From the IMG/VR virus record IMGVR_UViG_3300011223_000001, positions 1 to 64,000 of that record: a DNA stretch of 64,000 nt, one strand, 5' to 3'. This document shows, piece after piece, positions 2,167 through 48,068 of the stretch. Within the stretch, counting starts at the first letter, position 1; each line of letters opens with the position of its first letter. Source of the DNA: an uncultured virus (IMG/VR IMGVR_UViG_3300011223_000001) (lineage: Duplodnaviria; Heunggongvirae; Uroviricota; Caudoviricetes). Position numbers and translations under genes: made by a program. The notes beneath the pieces were generated by a model. It had not been told where the DNA came from. It ran no database searches and worked only from the letters and a program-made list of their open reading frames with translations.

Positions 2167-2201
2167 CGGCATAAAACCCAGCCCGAAGGCTGGGTTATTT
2201 T
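2167..2201. terminator. CATA-hairpin element downstream of the tRNAs
   Basis: CGGCATAA-AACCCAGC-CCGAAG-GCTGGGTT; reads hairpin-TTTTATGCCG on the minus strand. Confidence 0.7.
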
Positions 2202-2205
2202 AATA

Positions 2206-2282
2206 TGGCTCACCCTCCTGGACTCGAACCAGGGACACCTCGGTTAACAGCCGAGTGCAACTACCAACTGTGCTAAGGGTGA
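2206..2282 (-). tRNA. tRNA-Asn(GTT)
   Basis: Reverse complement TCACCCT...CTCGG-CTGTTAA-CCGAG...GGTTCGAGTCC...AGGGTGAGCCA folds to a cloverleaf; CCA encoded. Confidence 0.95.
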
Positions 2283-2283
2283 A

Positions 2284-2368
2284 TGGTGGGCAGGGAAGGA
2301 TTTGAACCTTCGAAGGCTGAGCCGTCGGATTTACAGTCCGATCCCTTTAACCACTCGGGAACCTACCC
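2284..2368 (-). tRNA. tRNA-Tyr(GTA)
   Basis: Reverse complement GGGTAGG...TCGGA-CTGTAAA-TCCGA, long variable arm, GGTTCAAATCC, CCTGCCCACCA. Confidence 0.95.
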
Positions 2369-2477
2369 ATTTGACAGAAGATGTGCCTCCGTTCTGTCAG
2401 CGGAGGCGTAGGGTGCAGCCGAAGCCACAGTAGACGCCCGCTCTGGCGATCCCGAAGGAAGAAGCCACCAACCCCAC
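2369..2477 (-). ncRNA. Candidate structured RNA (3-way junction plus H-type pseudoknot) in the tRNA leader
   Basis: Hand-folded: GUGGGGU/ACCCUAC closes two C(UUCG)G hairpins; GCCUCCG/CGGAGGC and UGACAGAA/UUCUGUCA interlock. Confidence 0.5.
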
Positions 2478-2524
2478 ATTACGGCAATTACTTCCGTATA
2501 CTATTACACACACTGTAAAACATT

Positions 2525-2557
2525 GCATAAAGCAGGGCGTGGCCCTGCTTTATGTTG
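2525..2557. terminator. CATA-hairpin-TATG element after nrdB
   Basis: GCATAAAGCAGGGC-GTG-GCCCTGCTTTATGT. Confidence 0.75.
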
Positions 2558-2570
2558 ATACTTATTTCGG

Positions 2571-3743
2571 TTAGGCCGCAGCACGACCTGGCAGAGCGTA
2601 CGCCAGGGTATTGCGTGGGCGGTGAAGTTGGAACGGGAACACCAGACCGTTGTCGTCGTGGCGAACCACGTTGACACGATACTGACCATTGTCCTGTTCT
2701 TGTGGGGAGGCTTGGGTAGCCGCCACGTCCAGCCACTTGGTCATGTACTTCAGTGGCATTTCCAACGGCGCCTTGAAGTCCACAGGGCGCTCCAGTACAT
2801 CCAAGGCATCGGCCACGTTGAAGTTGATGTAGCTGCCGATCTCGTCCCAACCTACGTCCGGTACAATCGAACCGGAGTCGCGTTGGAAATTCCGCCAGCG
2901 CATTTCGGAGGCACGGACTTCCAGACCCATCTCATCGATGAGGTTGCGGTTAGCTTTCCAGCAACGACGACCGCGCTCGGTTTTGAGCTCGTTCTCGATG
3001 ACGTACTTGCCAACGTTAACATGGATCTCGGATTCGTCCTGCGCGATGCGCTGCACCGCTTTGCAGATCGGCATGTAATCGCCCGTCTGTGCAATCGCGC
3101 CAGTTACGGCGAAGGAACCCATGAAGTTCACACGCTCCAGCAGGAACAGTGCAACGGTGAACATGAAGGCGCCTTCGTAGGCTTCATCCGAGTTACGGGC
3201 GATGTCGCCCAACGATACACGCAGGCCGATGCGGTAGGACCTGGCCATCACACGGGAGATGGTGTCCATCCGCGCCATGGCTTCTTTCACGCCCAAGACG
3301 TCGTTCAATACATCGTTAGGCGAGTCGAAGCTGTAGCGTACAATTTCGGAATAGGTCGTGGCGTGCAGGTTCTCGTTGGCCACGATCTGGTCCCACACCA
3401 CTTTCAGTGCGGAGTTGGTCACGTAGTGGTTACCCACCGCCATGATGCTGTTCGCGGCGATGGAGTCGCCTTCCCACTGCCAGCCCAAGTTCTGGATCAT
3501 GGCTTGGGCGACGCCTGGGCTCTTGGTTTTGAACTCCAGCAGACACGGACTGAAGTCAAACTCGTTGGTGTCCCAGTCCAGGCCGCGCAGTGAGCGCCAG
3601 AAGTCCCAGAGCTTGGGGTGAGGGTCGTTCACGGTGTCGAGCAGGCCCTTGGGTTCACCCAAGAACAGACGCGTGTCACCGTAATCGCCTTTATGCTGGT
3701 TGAAGATTACATTGTCAAGCGAGGGAACGATTATTTCCGACAT
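2571..3743 (-). CDS. nrdB: Ribonucleotide reductase class Ia beta subunit
   Basis: Di-iron motifs ENLHATTY and QDESEIH; C-terminal SPQE; adjacent to nrdA. Confidence 0.93.
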   Translation of the reverse strand: MSEIIVPSLDNVIFNQHKGDYGDTRLFLGEPKGLLDTVNDPHPKLWDFWRSLRGLDWDTNEFDFSPCLLEFKTKSPGVAQAMIQNLGWQWEGDSIAANSIMAVGNHYVTNSALKVVWDQIVANENLHATTYSEIVRYSFDSPNDVLNDVLGVKEAMARMDTISRVMARSYRIGLRVSLGDIARNSDEAYEGAFMFTVALFLLERVNFMGSFAVTGAIAQTGDYMPICKAVQRIAQDESEIHVNVGKYVIENELKTERGRRCWKANRNLIDEMGLEVRASEMRWRNFQRDSGSIVPDVGWDEIGSYINFNVADALDVLERPVDFKAPLEMPLKYMTKWLDVAATQASPQEQDNGQYRVNVVRHDDNGLVFPFQLHRPRNTLAYALPGRAAA

Positions 3744-21534: not shown

Positions 21535-22464
21535 TTATTTGAACTGTTCGGCGACTTGGCGGTAAACCAAATCAGTGAAAGCCCGCAGTTCATTTGGACG
21601 ACCTGCCGTCAGTGCACGGGAAGCCAGTGTTGTCTTTTTATACGAACGGTCCATGATCACATTATAGACCAGCGCAATGAAGGTCGGCATGTGCTCCAGT
21701 GCCACCCCGACGTTTTCACGGGCATTGACACCGAAGTACGAGCTTTGCACCAAGGTGATGATGTCAGCCGCGGAAAGGTCACCCATCCGAATACTACCCA
21801 AATCCTGGCTAATGGTCTTGGCCAAGTCCTCAAGAGTCTTCAGACTTTTGATGGAATCGGAGATCTCGAGAATGGTGCGGTTCTCGGGCATGTTGGTTAC
21901 ATTGCGTACAATGTTGACCATCGCGGCACGTGCTTCAGGATCTGTCGCCAGCTCCTCATTGATCATCGCCAGGTAGTAGTACGCACAAACCACTGAGATT
22001 TTCAGCTCCGTACCACCGTCTAAGTTGAACTTACCAACGATGGCCCGGGTAATCCATTTGATGAACGTAATCATCGGCACGTTGCCTAGGCGGCGCAGCG
22101 TGGTCGGTCCTTTGGTGGGGTCCATGGCGTTGAGCGTTAGAGCCCCACGCACACACTGAAACATCCAGTCGTTCTCAGTAGTAAGACGGTATGTGCCTGT
22201 TCGGCGATCGAGTCGCATAAACGGTCGCCCGTCTAGGACCAACCTGGGTGCCTGATCAGTACCCAGATTTACAAATTGGGTGAATGCCTTGACGTCCTCA
22301 TGTTCCTCGTTCGGTGCAACAAAGAACAGGTTCTTGATGGTGTTACCACCGGGCGTTACGACCTCAGGAAGAGGGAGATCGATCTGGGCGCTTTTGATCT
22401 TGCTGACAATCGAGTCCACCTGGTACATGCGCCCTTGGGTGGTGTCGTATGGCATGAGTAGCAT
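21535..22464 (-). CDS. Conserved virion protein (phiKZ gp28-like)
   Basis: 309 aa; divergent from the sheath gene; synteny. Confidence 0.6.
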   Translation of the reverse strand: MLLMPYDTTQGRMYQVDSIVSKIKSAQIDLPLPEVVTPGGNTIKNLFFVAPNEEHEDVKAFTQFVNLGTDQAPRLVLDGRPFMRLDRRTGTYRLTTENDWMFQCVRGALTLNAMDPTKGPTTLRRLGNVPMITFIKWITRAIVGKFNLDGGTELKISVVCAYYYLAMINEELATDPEARAAMVNIVRNVTNMPENRTILEISDSIKSLKTLEDLAKTISQDLGSIRMGDLSAADIITLVQSSYFGVNARENVGVALEHMPTFIALVYNVIMDRSYKKTTLASRALTAGRPNELRAFTDLVYRQVAEQFK

Positions 22465-33129: not shown

Positions 33130-33936
33130 TCATATCGACCCTACGACGGTGCGCATCATCCGGCGACGGGCTTCAGGGTCGTTGAAGTTTTGAGCCACGT
33201 TCTTCCAGACCTTGAGTTTGGCACGGTATTCTGTCCACTTGTCGCTCCACTGGTTGACCCGGTCACCGAAGGCCCCCAGCTCTTGACCGCCGGACAGGTA
33301 CGCCTGACCGATGGCAATTTGATGCTGGCTGTAGATGTAGGCTTGGGTTGCCAGCAAGCACAGTTCTGCAAAGTCGAGAATCGCCTGTGGGCGGATAAAC
33401 GTCAAGGCTTCATCATTGCCCAACCGGCAACGCAAGAACGCGTTGGTAAAAGGCAAGTAGGTGTACTTGACGATGAAGGTGTTGTGGTTGATCAGGTTGA
33501 TGTAAGACGTTGCCGCAGGTGGCGTACGCAGCGCCGAATCCATCACCTTGCGCAGCTCACCGCCTAGTGCCGATTCCGGTGAGCGCAATACACCGGTTGC
33601 GACCGAGTAGTTGAGGATACCAAAATGCACCGAATAGATCTGCCGGATCGGACGGTTCTGCGTCATCTCGCTTGGCACCTGGTACATGGTGGTCAAGTGA
33701 TCGATGGCCTCCACCGTAACCGAGGGATGGTCTAACGGAATGTACGCCTCAGTGCCACCGACGATGTCCATGTCGACCAACACCCGACGTTCAATGATTT
33801 CCTCTTGAATCCGGGTGCGCATGTTGACAGGACTGGAGCACAGGTAAAAATCGGCCTTTTCGAAAAAGGCTTTGAGAATCTGTGGGCCGATCTCATCCTC
33901 GATATCATCGAGGGCCTTGACCATGGGGTTTGACAT
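33130..33936 (-). CDS. Conserved core protein, possibly virion/neck
   Basis: 268 aa; AGGAGG RBS; LSGGQELG motif. Confidence 0.55.
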   Translation of the reverse strand: MSNPMVKALDDIEDEIGPQILKAFFEKADFYLCSSPVNMRTRIQEEIIERRVLVDMDIVGGTEAYIPLDHPSVTVEAIDHLTTMYQVPSEMTQNRPIRQIYSVHFGILNYSVATGVLRSPESALGGELRKVMDSALRTPPAATSYINLINHNTFIVKYTYLPFTNAFLRCRLGNDEALTFIRPQAILDFAELCLLATQAYIYSQHQIAIGQAYLSGGQELGAFGDRVNQWSDKWTEYRAKLKVWKNVAQNFNDPEARRRMMRTVVGSI

Positions 33937-46437: not shown

Positions 46438-47685
46438 ATGGGTGTTAGCCTTCAGTGTGTTGACCATGATGAGGTTTTCGATAACCTTCCTTACGAACCC
46501 TTGATGGTGAATTCACTTGACACCAGTACCCCGGAGAAACTGGTAGAGTTCAAGCGTCACATTTATAGCCACTACAACAACAGCGACACGATCGAAGAGT
46601 CAGCTGCCTGTACGTGTAAAAAGATCACCGACGTTGACAAGATCGGCACCTATTGCCCTGACTGTCACACGAAAGTGGAAGGCAGTAATGATCGGCCGAT
46701 CGTGCCAAGCATGTGGATGGAAGCACCCGAGGGTGTGACCAGTCTGATCAGCCCACACCTGTGGATCATCCTCGATCAGAACACCACCACCAAGGAATTC
46801 AATTTCCTGCGGTATCTGACCGATACCAAATGGAAATTTGTGTACGAGCGATTGAGCTCTAAGGAGACCAAGCGTAAAGTAGACCGTCTGCTTGAAAAGA
46901 ACTTTGAGCGTGGTTTGAATGCGTTCATCAAGAACTTCGATGAGATCGTCGAGTTCTTCTTCCAGGCAAACATCATCGACAAGAACAAAGCCGAGCTGGC
47001 AGCGTTCATCGCGAACAACAAGCACTGTTTCTTCCCGCAGGTCTTGCCGTTACCAAGCCGGGTCTGTATGGTGGTCGAATCAACCACCAGCGGCACCTAC
47101 ATCGACAAGCCGATCTTGCTTGCAGTGGATGCGGCCTTGTCGATGGCTTCAATCGGGTCAACCAACTTTAAGTTGAAACCGATGGAAGTGCAGAACATCA
47201 CGGCGCAGTCGATCGCCACCTTGAGTATGTTCCACCAGATCTACGACAAGGAGCGCTTGGCGCGTAAGCCCGGTCTGATTCGTCGGCATGTGCTTGCCAG
47301 TAGTTTGTACCTCACTGGCCGTAACGTGATCACCTCGATTTCCAAGCCACACAACTACGAGCAGATCGAACTGCCGTGGGGTATGGCTGTACAGCTGTTC
47401 AAGTACCACATCATCTCCAAACTGTTCCGCCGTAACTACACGGCAAACGAAGCGTTGGCCGAAGTGTATTCGAACGTGCTGAACGATGTTCCCAACCCAC
47501 TGTTGGTTGAGATCTTCAACGAGTTGATTGCAGAATCCAATGGCGGCCTGGGCCCAGCCTGTATCTTCGGGCGCAACCCGACGTTGCAGCGTGGTTCGAC
47601 GCAGATGTTCTACATCGGCACGATCAAGTCGAACACCCGCGACAACACCATCTCGATGTCAGTGCTCTGCCTTAAAGCACCTAAT
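46438..47685 (+). CDS. Non-virion RNAP beta'-N subunit, exon 1 (phiKZ gp55-like)
   Basis: Zn-binding CTC...CPDC, GRNVITS, GRNPTLQRGS; ends LKAPN. Confidence 0.88.
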
Positions 47686-48068
47686 TTGATTCTATTAACT
47701 GGTTCTCCCAAGGGGTAATCCTTGGGTAGTGTTCTCTCTAATTGCTGGAAACCCCTAAAGCCTGTTCACCACTGCGAGGCGAAAGCCAAAGCCACGGTTT
47801 GAAAACGAACAGGATGTACAATGGGCAATCAGCAGCCAAGCTCCGTCCAGGAGAAGGTTCAACGACTATTACGCCAGCAGGTGCGGCGGCTAACGCAAGT
47901 TAGTGTAGGGCCCAAGTGGGTGGCGCAAGCCTTAAATCGAAATGGGAGACACCCGACTCGCTTAGCGAAGGGTGAAGATATAGTCTCGACATCCAGTGAA
48001 AGCTGGAGCGGTTCCTGGACATCACCACAGGAACGGGGCAGGTCTAACGAACCTGCTTGAAGGCCTCG
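47686..48068 (+). mobile_element. Group I intron, 383 nt, no homing endonuclease ORF
   Basis: P AATTGCTGGAA (47740), Q AATCAGCAG (47827), R GTTCAACGACTA (47857), S AAGATATAGTCT (47975). The 5' exon ends in U and the intron in G; removal restores PN-ADFDGD. Confidence 0.9.

Follow-up and report, generated by a model that had tools for sequence, protein, structure and literature searches.

The stretch of DNA analyzed here (the window) covers positions 1–64,000 of a virus record of 268,693 bp, IMGVR_UViG_3300011223_000001, rated 97% complete, and the feature under study (the element) is a folded RNA module of ~110 bases encoded on its minus strand, 5' of a tRNA-Tyr gene. Judging from its sequence, the element is genuine, a structured RNA that is uncatalogued, kept by selection and narrow in its distribution; with moderate confidence, it may be viewed as an accessory stable RNA released by ribonuclease P (RNase P) from the transcript of a tRNA operon. 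The window encodes a terminase, a tail sheath, a DNA polymerase and several multisubunit RNA-polymerase beta-like subunits. Its tail sheath shares 83% identity with that of Pseudomonas phage Noxifer and at most 54% with those of PA1C, 201phi2-1, PhiPA3, Psa21, Phabio and phiKZ; by these identities, the source phage is judged to be a Noxifer-like, phiKZ-type jumbo phage.

The element belongs to a tRNA unit flanked by two terminators and ordered, on the minus strand, as a GTGTAATnnTATA promoter, a leader of ~18 nucleotides (nt), the element, tRNA-Tyr, tRNA-Asn and a terminator. From the upstream gene to the end of the unit, the following features are found:

2571–3743, minus strand: upstream open reading frame (ORF) of the ribonucleotide-reductase small subunit (phrog_86 match)
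2526–2554, minus strand: terminator-like site, the terminator hairpin of the ribonucleotide-reductase small-subunit gene and the 5' limit of the tRNA unit
2497–2511, minus strand: promoter motif GTGTGTAATAGTATA with the core TGTAATnnTATA, recognized by motif recurrence and alignment
2478–2495, minus strand: predicted transcription start at about G2495 (±2) and short conserved 5' leader, placed by alignment to the 201phi2-1 promoter P058
2471–2477, minus strand: 5' strand of helix P1, pairing with 2408–2414
2444–2467, minus strand: hairpin P2, its stem split by an internal loop into 4 bp and 3 bp and topped by a UUCG loop, with a C(UUCG)G cap
2429–2443, minus strand: conserved 15-nt junction J2/3, making up with P2 the 41-nt core (2429–2469)
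2415–2428, minus strand: hairpin P3 of 5 bp with a UUCG loop and a C(UUCG)G cap
2408–2414, minus strand: 3' strand of P1, forming 7 bp (one of them G-U) with 2477–2471
2401–2407 with 2385–2391, minus strand: pseudoknot stem S1 of 7 Watson-Crick bp, with a 9-nt loop holding the 5' strand of stem S2 (2392–2399)
2372–2379, minus strand: 3' strand of S2, forming 8 Watson-Crick bp with 2399–2392, after a linker at 2380–2384
2369–2371, minus strand: 3-nt spacer before the tRNA and, assuming an RNase P cut, predicted 3' end of the released RNA
2284–2368, minus strand: tRNA-Tyr (GTA) with encoded CCA (ARAGORN; Rfam tRNA model, 58.4 bits)
2206–2282, minus strand: tRNA-Asn (GTT) (ARAGORN; Rfam tRNA model, 56.3 bits)
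2168–2196, minus strand: putative terminator of the unit, a hairpin (2175–2196) followed by UUUAUGCC

Three bases (2371–2369) separate the element from G2368, the first base of tRNA-Tyr, as had been claimed in an earlier reading made without database searches (the sequence-only reading), and a single base separates tRNA-Tyr from tRNA-Asn. The neighbors of the element are ribonucleotide reductase genes and a 308-aa ORF without known identity, and the base composition around it is unremarkable. Near-identical DNA of this locus is present in contigs of phyllosphere and freshwater sequencing runs. Of 24 such runs, four were compared (X6, X8, X9 and X10, all stored as contigs); the element occurs without differences in three, and the X10 contig spans only 2436–2650; these are identical DNA copies, and no covariation variants of the element were found among them.

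All the helices named in the sequence-only reading, i.e., P1, the two C(UUCG)G hairpins, S1 and S2, were found at the minus-strand coordinates listed above. The claim that this is a structured non-coding RNA in the tRNA sense also held; the minus strand folds to about −41.5 to −41.7 kcal/mol vs. −31.6 kcal/mol (z = −0.30) for the plus strand. The nested part of the described fold, in which P1 closes a three-way junction with junction lengths of 2–3, 15 and 0 nt, amounts to −35.7 kcal/mol. The H-type pseudoknot of 7 + 8 bp that follows it goes beyond what chance would produce. The loop–tail duplex of S2 (−10.2 kcal/mol) was equalled by 0 of 5000 tail shuffles and by 1 of 5000 loop shuffles, and perfect 7 + 7 H-type pseudoknots were detected at four loci, the element included, on both strands of the whole 268.7-kb genome, the mean for ten Markov-simulated genomes being 0.5 loci. 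The other three candidates are situated at ~185,600 (minus strand), 102,943–102,983 (both strands) and 231,241 (minus strand) of the genome. S1 was recovered in all low-energy folds of both phages carrying the element (see below), and S1, the tip of P2, P3 and the S2 of the window can be regarded as solid.

Exactly one homolog of the element, that of Pseudomonas phage Noxifer, was revealed by blastn and by a covariance model (R1) built from the window and Noxifer copies and scoring 138.6 and 119.6 bits on them, respectively. The operon of Noxifer is ordered as promoter, leader, tRNA-Tyr, tRNA-Asp, 107 unrelated bases, the element, ~5 bases and tRNA-Asn, so the element adjoins the 5' end of a tRNA in both phages, tRNA-Tyr in the window and tRNA-Asn in Noxifer. 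The 41-nt core is identical to that of Noxifer at 38 of its 41 positions vs. 169 of the 295 four-fold degenerate sites (57%) of the tail-sheath gene, which served as the neutral reference (P = 6e-7), so that conservation in the core far exceeds that of neutral sequence. All 7 pairs of P2 are invariant, and the drifting regions of the element display about the neutral level of identity, e.g., 4/14 in P3, 4/9 in the pseudoknot loop and 9/16 in the tail. In Noxifer, the place of P3 is taken by a different stem of 3–4 bp with a GAAA loop, a tetraloop hairpin being present in both phages. S1 holds its 7 pairs via one U-A to G-U double change and S2 exhibits three two-sided changes, giving a total of 4 two-sided pair changes vs. 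0–1 in slid controls, and 90.6% of the cells in the two-sequence alignment are paired vs. 33–53% in these controls. This pattern of identity and pairing indicates that the element is conserved under selection in Noxifer.

Apart from a group I intron and two tRNAs, the search of the window against Rfam 15 at the gathering score returned nothing, leaving the element unmatched. At E ≤ 10, the region 2000–2900 gave nothing over the element on the minus strand but sX4, with 12 bits vs. a gathering score of 70, and the Noxifer copy yielded no match at E ≤ 1; the view of the sequence-only reading that the element is uncatalogued was borne out by the Rfam check. No tRNA-like fold was found for the element: ARAGORN and RF00005 call only 2206–2282 and 2284–2368 in the region. 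A 38-aa ORF at 2363–2479 spans the element, with no ribosome-binding site before it. Its interpretation as a small protein or a leader peptide was rejected, since alignment gaps of 1 nt and 4 nt shift the frame of the conserved bases in Noxifer. Literature searches under Noxifer with tRNA and under phiKZ non-coding RNA returned no description of the element, and a link to CsrA/Rsm was dropped, as the paper mentioning Noxifer merely cites its genome note.

No sigma-70-like promoter was found upstream of the tRNA unit, and the phage encodes multisubunit RNA polymerase subunits. The core motif TGTAATnnTATA occurs three times in the 268.7-kb genome (0.1 in shuffles), each time before a non-coding RNA gene: one copy precedes the tRNA-Tyr operon, one (at 200.5 kb) a tRNA-like gene of 92 nt and one (at 263.4 kb) a conserved RNA of ~215 nt. 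It is invariant across seven aligned promoters, the mapped P058 of phage 201phi2-1 among them, and the 38-nt upstream box comprising the promoter and the leader displays 97% identity to the box before the tRNA-Tyr of Noxifer. P058 is listed as the middle promoter of tRNA-Leu with its start mapped at 300438 (PMC11512511). This start falls on the final base of ...TATATG; from the alignment to it, the transcript of the element is predicted to start near G2495, giving a leader RNA of ~127 nt.

The second small RNA unit under this motif (genome ~263,440–263,680, plus strand; locus L230) consists of a TGTAATAGTATA promoter, ~215 non-coding bases and a terminator made of a hairpin plus TTTATGCC; its RNA shares 82% identity with a Noxifer homolog (locus L231), and Rfam returned nothing for it at E ≤ 1. 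The remaining copy of the motif (genome 200,484–200,606, plus strand; 1470–1592 of locus L229) precedes the 92-nt tRNA-like gene, which scores 36.3 bits with the Rfam tRNA model and is not called by ARAGORN, a tRNA-Lys being located 1.7 kb further; this gene may represent an intron-containing or otherwise unusual tRNA. In the terminators of the phage, a GC-rich hairpin, in many cases with UUCG as its loop, is followed by TTTATGCC in place of a long T run, a pattern recorded at 2168–2196 and 2520–2554 of the window, at 1395–1425 of L229 and at 350–380 of L230. Some of these terminators hence escape a generic scan. The same hairpin plus TTTATGCC also ends the other small RNA units of the phage. 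In run X10, the loop of the upstream terminator (window 2539–2541) reads CAC, the reverse complement of GTG; the hairpin loop seems to have been flipped in a close phage variant.

The distribution of the element is narrow. Searches of whole genomes with R1 gave no further copies in G001 and G003 (Noxifer-like IMG/VR genomes with tail sheaths 82% and 79% identical to that of the window) or in pPa_SNUABM_DT01, nor any in PA1C, Viktualia, 201phi2-1, PhiPA3, Psa21, Phabio, D6, RVTF4 and phiKZ; the best score among these 12 relatives was 11.3 bits, from a hit away from any tRNA. The carriers hence number 2 of the 14 related genomes searched, and the genome of the source phage itself contains a single copy. 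Exact-pattern scans of viral contigs retrieved Noxifer alone, the other hits being chance ones of ≤8.3 bits, as did, apart from chance hits, blastn searches of 50,697 phage records with both copies. Metagenome scans gave 0 hits with the promoter–leader pattern and 102 stretches with the core pattern, 80 of which were scored with R1, all at ≤14.2 bits; among bacterial and archaeal genome contigs, 68 stretches were picked out, none of them above 15.8 bits.

G003 represents a natural empty site, with the promoter, leader, tRNA-Tyr and tRNA-Asn in place and no insert; G001 possesses the promoter, leader and tRNA-Asn, also without the element. Its placement before tRNA-Tyr in one phage and tRNA-Asn in another, together with its absence from sister phages, argues that the element is an accessory, portable and dispensable module, apparently occupying a variable slot of tRNA operons. 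Other operon spacers are unique to each phage as well (107 nt in Noxifer, 257 nt in G001 and 412 nt in pPa_SNUABM_DT01). The non-coding cassette of G001 follows tRNA-Asn (1624–1880 of locus L007; fold z = −0.60), that of Noxifer extends from tRNA-Asp to the element (3202–3308 of locus L001; fold z = +0.59), both z-scores being non-significant, and neither cassette is matched in the other four genomes. In pPa_SNUABM_DT01, the 412-nt unannotated gap harbors an unrelated stretch of ~130 nt with strong structure (1370–1500 of locus L148; −68.8 kcal/mol, z = −3.49), in which a 14-bp outer stem surrounds two hairpins and which ends 9 nt before tRNA-Asn.

On the explanation that we favor with the moderate confidence stated above, the phage's own RNA polymerase would transcribe the element, together with tRNA-Tyr and tRNA-Asn, from a middle-type promoter dedicated to small RNAs, GTGTAATnnTATA, with the start near 2495. 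RNase P is established as the enzyme making the 5' ends of tRNAs, as stated too in PMC10879173. The host RNase P would cut between 2369 and 2368, setting free an RNA of ~127 nt. The 3' end of this RNA would be held in the compact pseudoknot with three free bases, and the RNA is predicted to persist because this end is locked and shielded from 3'-to-5' exonucleases. The working part would be represented by the sequence-conserved P2 hairpin and the 15-nt junction, with P3 and the pseudoknot acting as a scaffold whose sequence is free to drift. The best guess for the function is that of a trans-acting, protein-binding small RNA.

The closest precedent is sRNA009 of 201phi2-1, a phage of the same group infecting the same host genus and using the same GTGTAATnnTATA middle-type promoter. 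It is recorded as a 5'UTR-derived, tRNA-Leu-associated RNA of 88 nt (300438–300350), and one small RNA of 201phi2-1 is noted to sit immediately upstream of a tRNA (PMC11512511). The tRNA-Leu occupies 300266–300349, so sRNA009 ends exactly where the tRNA begins. Like the element, sRNA009 has a middle-type promoter motif directly upstream, similar first bases of the leader and a structured leader (z = −2.69) up against the tRNA. Unlike the element, it folds into three plain hairpins without a three-way junction or a pseudoknot, and its body is not homologous, R1 finding nothing in 201phi2-1 at E ≤ 10. Moreover, sRNA009 is backed by RNA evidence, whereas the element is known from DNA sequence alone. 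The genes of T4 RNA C and RNA D lie in the tRNA gene region of T4. These RNAs, described as being of yet unknown function (PMC9697503), resemble the element as small stable phage RNAs expressed alongside phage tRNAs, the stability and expression of the element being predicted ones. They differ from it in phage lineage and polymerase, and blastn against the 50,697 phage records revealed no sequence similarity. The new class of non-coding RNA proposed in the sequence-only reading turned out to be too strong a term for a two-member family whose architecture has a precedent in sRNA009: the element would belong among the small stable RNAs processed from phage tRNA transcripts, an established though little-understood kind, and it is the structural variant that is new.

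A number of observations weigh against the explanation by a released stable RNA. The covariation called for in the sequence-only reading is present, as the two-sided changes exceed those in slid controls, but it is thin, coming from two sequences, and 31 of 500 shuffles reach the counts observed. The nested folds are not significant by their z-scores, amounting to −1.30 in the window, where 23 of 200 shuffles are as good, and to −0.90 in Noxifer. The pairings of the three-way junction are present, as the sequence-only reading had it, but at −35.7 kcal/mol they do not make the minimum-energy fold (−41.7 kcal/mol), which pairs the 5' domain otherwise; the junction is favored only because it is the fold common to the element and the Noxifer copy. 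RNAalifold prefers another, long-hairpin fold of the 5' domain with consistent changes of its own, although this fold is poor on the window sequence (−19.7 kcal/mol). The three-way junction is accordingly best taken as the best shared model, since two sequences cannot fix the fold. In Noxifer, P1 is reduced to only 3 + 3 bp with a 2-nt bulge; S2 has 7 bp with a bulge (−4.4 kcal/mol), equalled by 26% of the tail shuffles and 29% of the loop shuffles. The element is also internal to the Noxifer operon, after the 107 unrelated bases, and its 5' end there is undefined. As for the released product, the authors of the 201phi2-1 map recorded the 3' end of sRNA009 as a termination site, i.e., not as a proven RNase P product (PMC11512511). 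A lead to a binding partner is absent as well: of the 25 ORFs (out of 339) common to Noxifer and not found in G001 or G003, 15 were scanned, giving no Pfam family above the threshold.

Among the alternatives, the one that survives best, and which we still consider rather unlikely, is that of a leader or spacer acting only in cis, i.e., assisting the neighboring pre-tRNA (by preventing misfolding with flanking RNA, offering a helix end a few bases upstream in the manner of a preceding tRNA or slowing nucleases) and having no role once cut off. The position of the element 3–5 nt before the tRNA 5' end in both phages is consistent with this possibility, and so is the spacing, which is like that from a helix end to the next tRNA in the operon (tRNA-Tyr and tRNA-Asn are spaced by ACCA plus 1 nt). 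Structured RNA also occurs 5' of tRNAs in relatives such as pPa_SNUABM_DT01 (z = −3.49) and 201phi2-1 (z = −2.69). Nevertheless, G003 and G001 have the same tRNAs behind the same promoter without the element, and a different tRNA would be served in each phage. Furthermore, the strongest constraint falls on the primary sequence of the 41-nt core, far from the tRNA, whereas the tRNA-proximal part drifts neutrally; a specific ligand or partner therefore fits this pattern better than a generic insulator.

A more doubtful proposal is that the element serves as a portable anti-defense decoy, whose P2–junction core would soak up or mislead a host protein, e.g., a nuclease attacking the Tyr, Asn and Asp tRNAs. 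The tRNA operon would then supply a strong promoter and free RNase P processing, and the phages would re-supply the tRNAs under attack (Tyr, Asn and Asp). Type III antitoxin RNAs of the ToxI kind consist of tandem pseudoknot repeats beside an endoribonuclease toxin gene, and phage-borne mimics of them exist. Similar to the element, they are small and pseudoknotted, and an RNA of this sort could serve a phage as a decoy for a host nuclease; unlike these tandem repeats lying by a toxin gene, the element is single-copy. Its assignment to the ToxI-like antitoxins was rejected, no tandem repeat being found in 2100–2700 and no second copy in the genome. Should the decoy reading be true, the lineage-specific non-coding cassettes in the tRNA operons of sister phages would represent alternative cargo of the same kind.

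Action by base pairing appears improbable. In this scenario, the single-stranded J2/3 would operate as a seed, with the phage's own dCTP-deaminase-like mRNA as a candidate target. The core does have a perfect antisense match of 15 nt in a plus-strand gene at ~217,010 of the genome, a stretch unchanged in Noxifer and bearing 1 and 3 changes in the element-less G001 and G003, respectively. However, a 15-mer match is obtained for 18% of random 132-nt genome segments (two matches for 4%), and for the Noxifer element the pairing shrinks to 13 nt, without a compensating change. The site ranks about fifth among distinct sites in a genome-wide duplex scan and falls outside the 8 best windows in Noxifer, and the conservation of the target is explained by a conserved protein motif encoded there.

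Equally hard to credit is the absence of any function, i.e., a recombination leftover in a variable spacer with chance complementarity. The patchy distribution (2/14 related genomes searched), the lineage-specific spacers of tRNA operons and the weak thermodynamic z-scores would all agree with it, but the identity of the core (38/41 vs. 57% neutral, P = 6e-7), the hairpins kept despite sequence turnover and the rarity by chance of a perfect 7 + 8 pseudoknot speak against it.

Hammerhead ribozymes are defined by three helices around a CUGANGA ... GAAA core and by a defined cleavage triplet. The element was rejected as a hammerhead, with Rfam unmatched, junctions of 2–3/15/0 nt and the hammerhead-like letters CUGA of the pseudoknot loop lost in Noxifer. 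Theta ribozymes are described as minimal HDV-like ribozymes located beside phage tRNAs and proposed to process tRNA 3' trailers (PMC10879173). They are similar to the element in being compact pseudoknotted RNAs abutting a phage tRNA gene; in contrast to the element, which lies on the 5' side and has no HDV-family Rfam match in the region 2000–2900 (E ≤ 10) or in the Noxifer copy (E ≤ 1), they occur on the 3' side and form a nested double pseudoknot (P1, P1.1, P2, P3 and P4), with cleavage at their own 5' end. A fold of the HDV/theta type was rejected, too: the strands of the element are ordered as P1 around two hairpins and then a simple H-type knot, 5' of the tRNA. The sequence-only reading did not recognize either type. 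Its suggestion of a self-cleaving element found no backing: a new ribozyme trimming the tRNA precursor, conceivable for a compact, pseudoknotted, tRNA-adjacent RNA with a sequence-conserved junction in view of the HDV-like theta ribozymes known to flank phage tRNAs (PMC10879173), is highly improbable given the lack of any family match in either copy at the above thresholds, the theta activity on 3' trailers (PMC10879173) as opposed to the 5' location of the element, a strand order misfitting the HDV topology, the non-conserved bases beside the would-be cleavage site, the RNase P already making tRNA 5' ends and the sister phages lacking the element.

To our knowledge, the mapping of small RNAs in jumbo phages has just begun, and none of them has a known function. 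The element is cleanly bounded, the order being promoter, structured module, tRNA and terminator, and Noxifer, one of the phages carrying it, is in culture on P. fluorescens SBW25, a harmless laboratory host, so that the question of the element is directly testable in this phage. Relatives with natural empty sites are available for comparison, and the conservation pattern points to a working core of 41 nt. More broadly, the phages of this group seem to reserve one promoter for small stable RNAs (this genome holds three units of the kind), and their tRNA operons appear to offer places for non-coding cargo that varies. Should this cargo counter host defenses or tune phage gene expression, the accessory genes of phages would gain a new class; if it does neither, the element would be one more orphan structured RNA.

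Elsewhere in the window, ARAGORN called a 'tRNA-???' with a two-base anticodon at 22009–22096 (minus strand) and a tRNA-Ser (CGA) at 33827–33922 (plus strand); both are probably false positives because they score below the Rfam tRNA gathering score and lie inside long ORFs. The group I intron is located at 47684–48008 on the plus strand (Rfam, 80.7 bits, E = 6e-19) and begins just inside the 3' end of the ORF 46438–47718, which has an RNA polymerase beta-subunit family match. An RNA polymerase gene of the phage thus appears to be split by a self-splicing intron.

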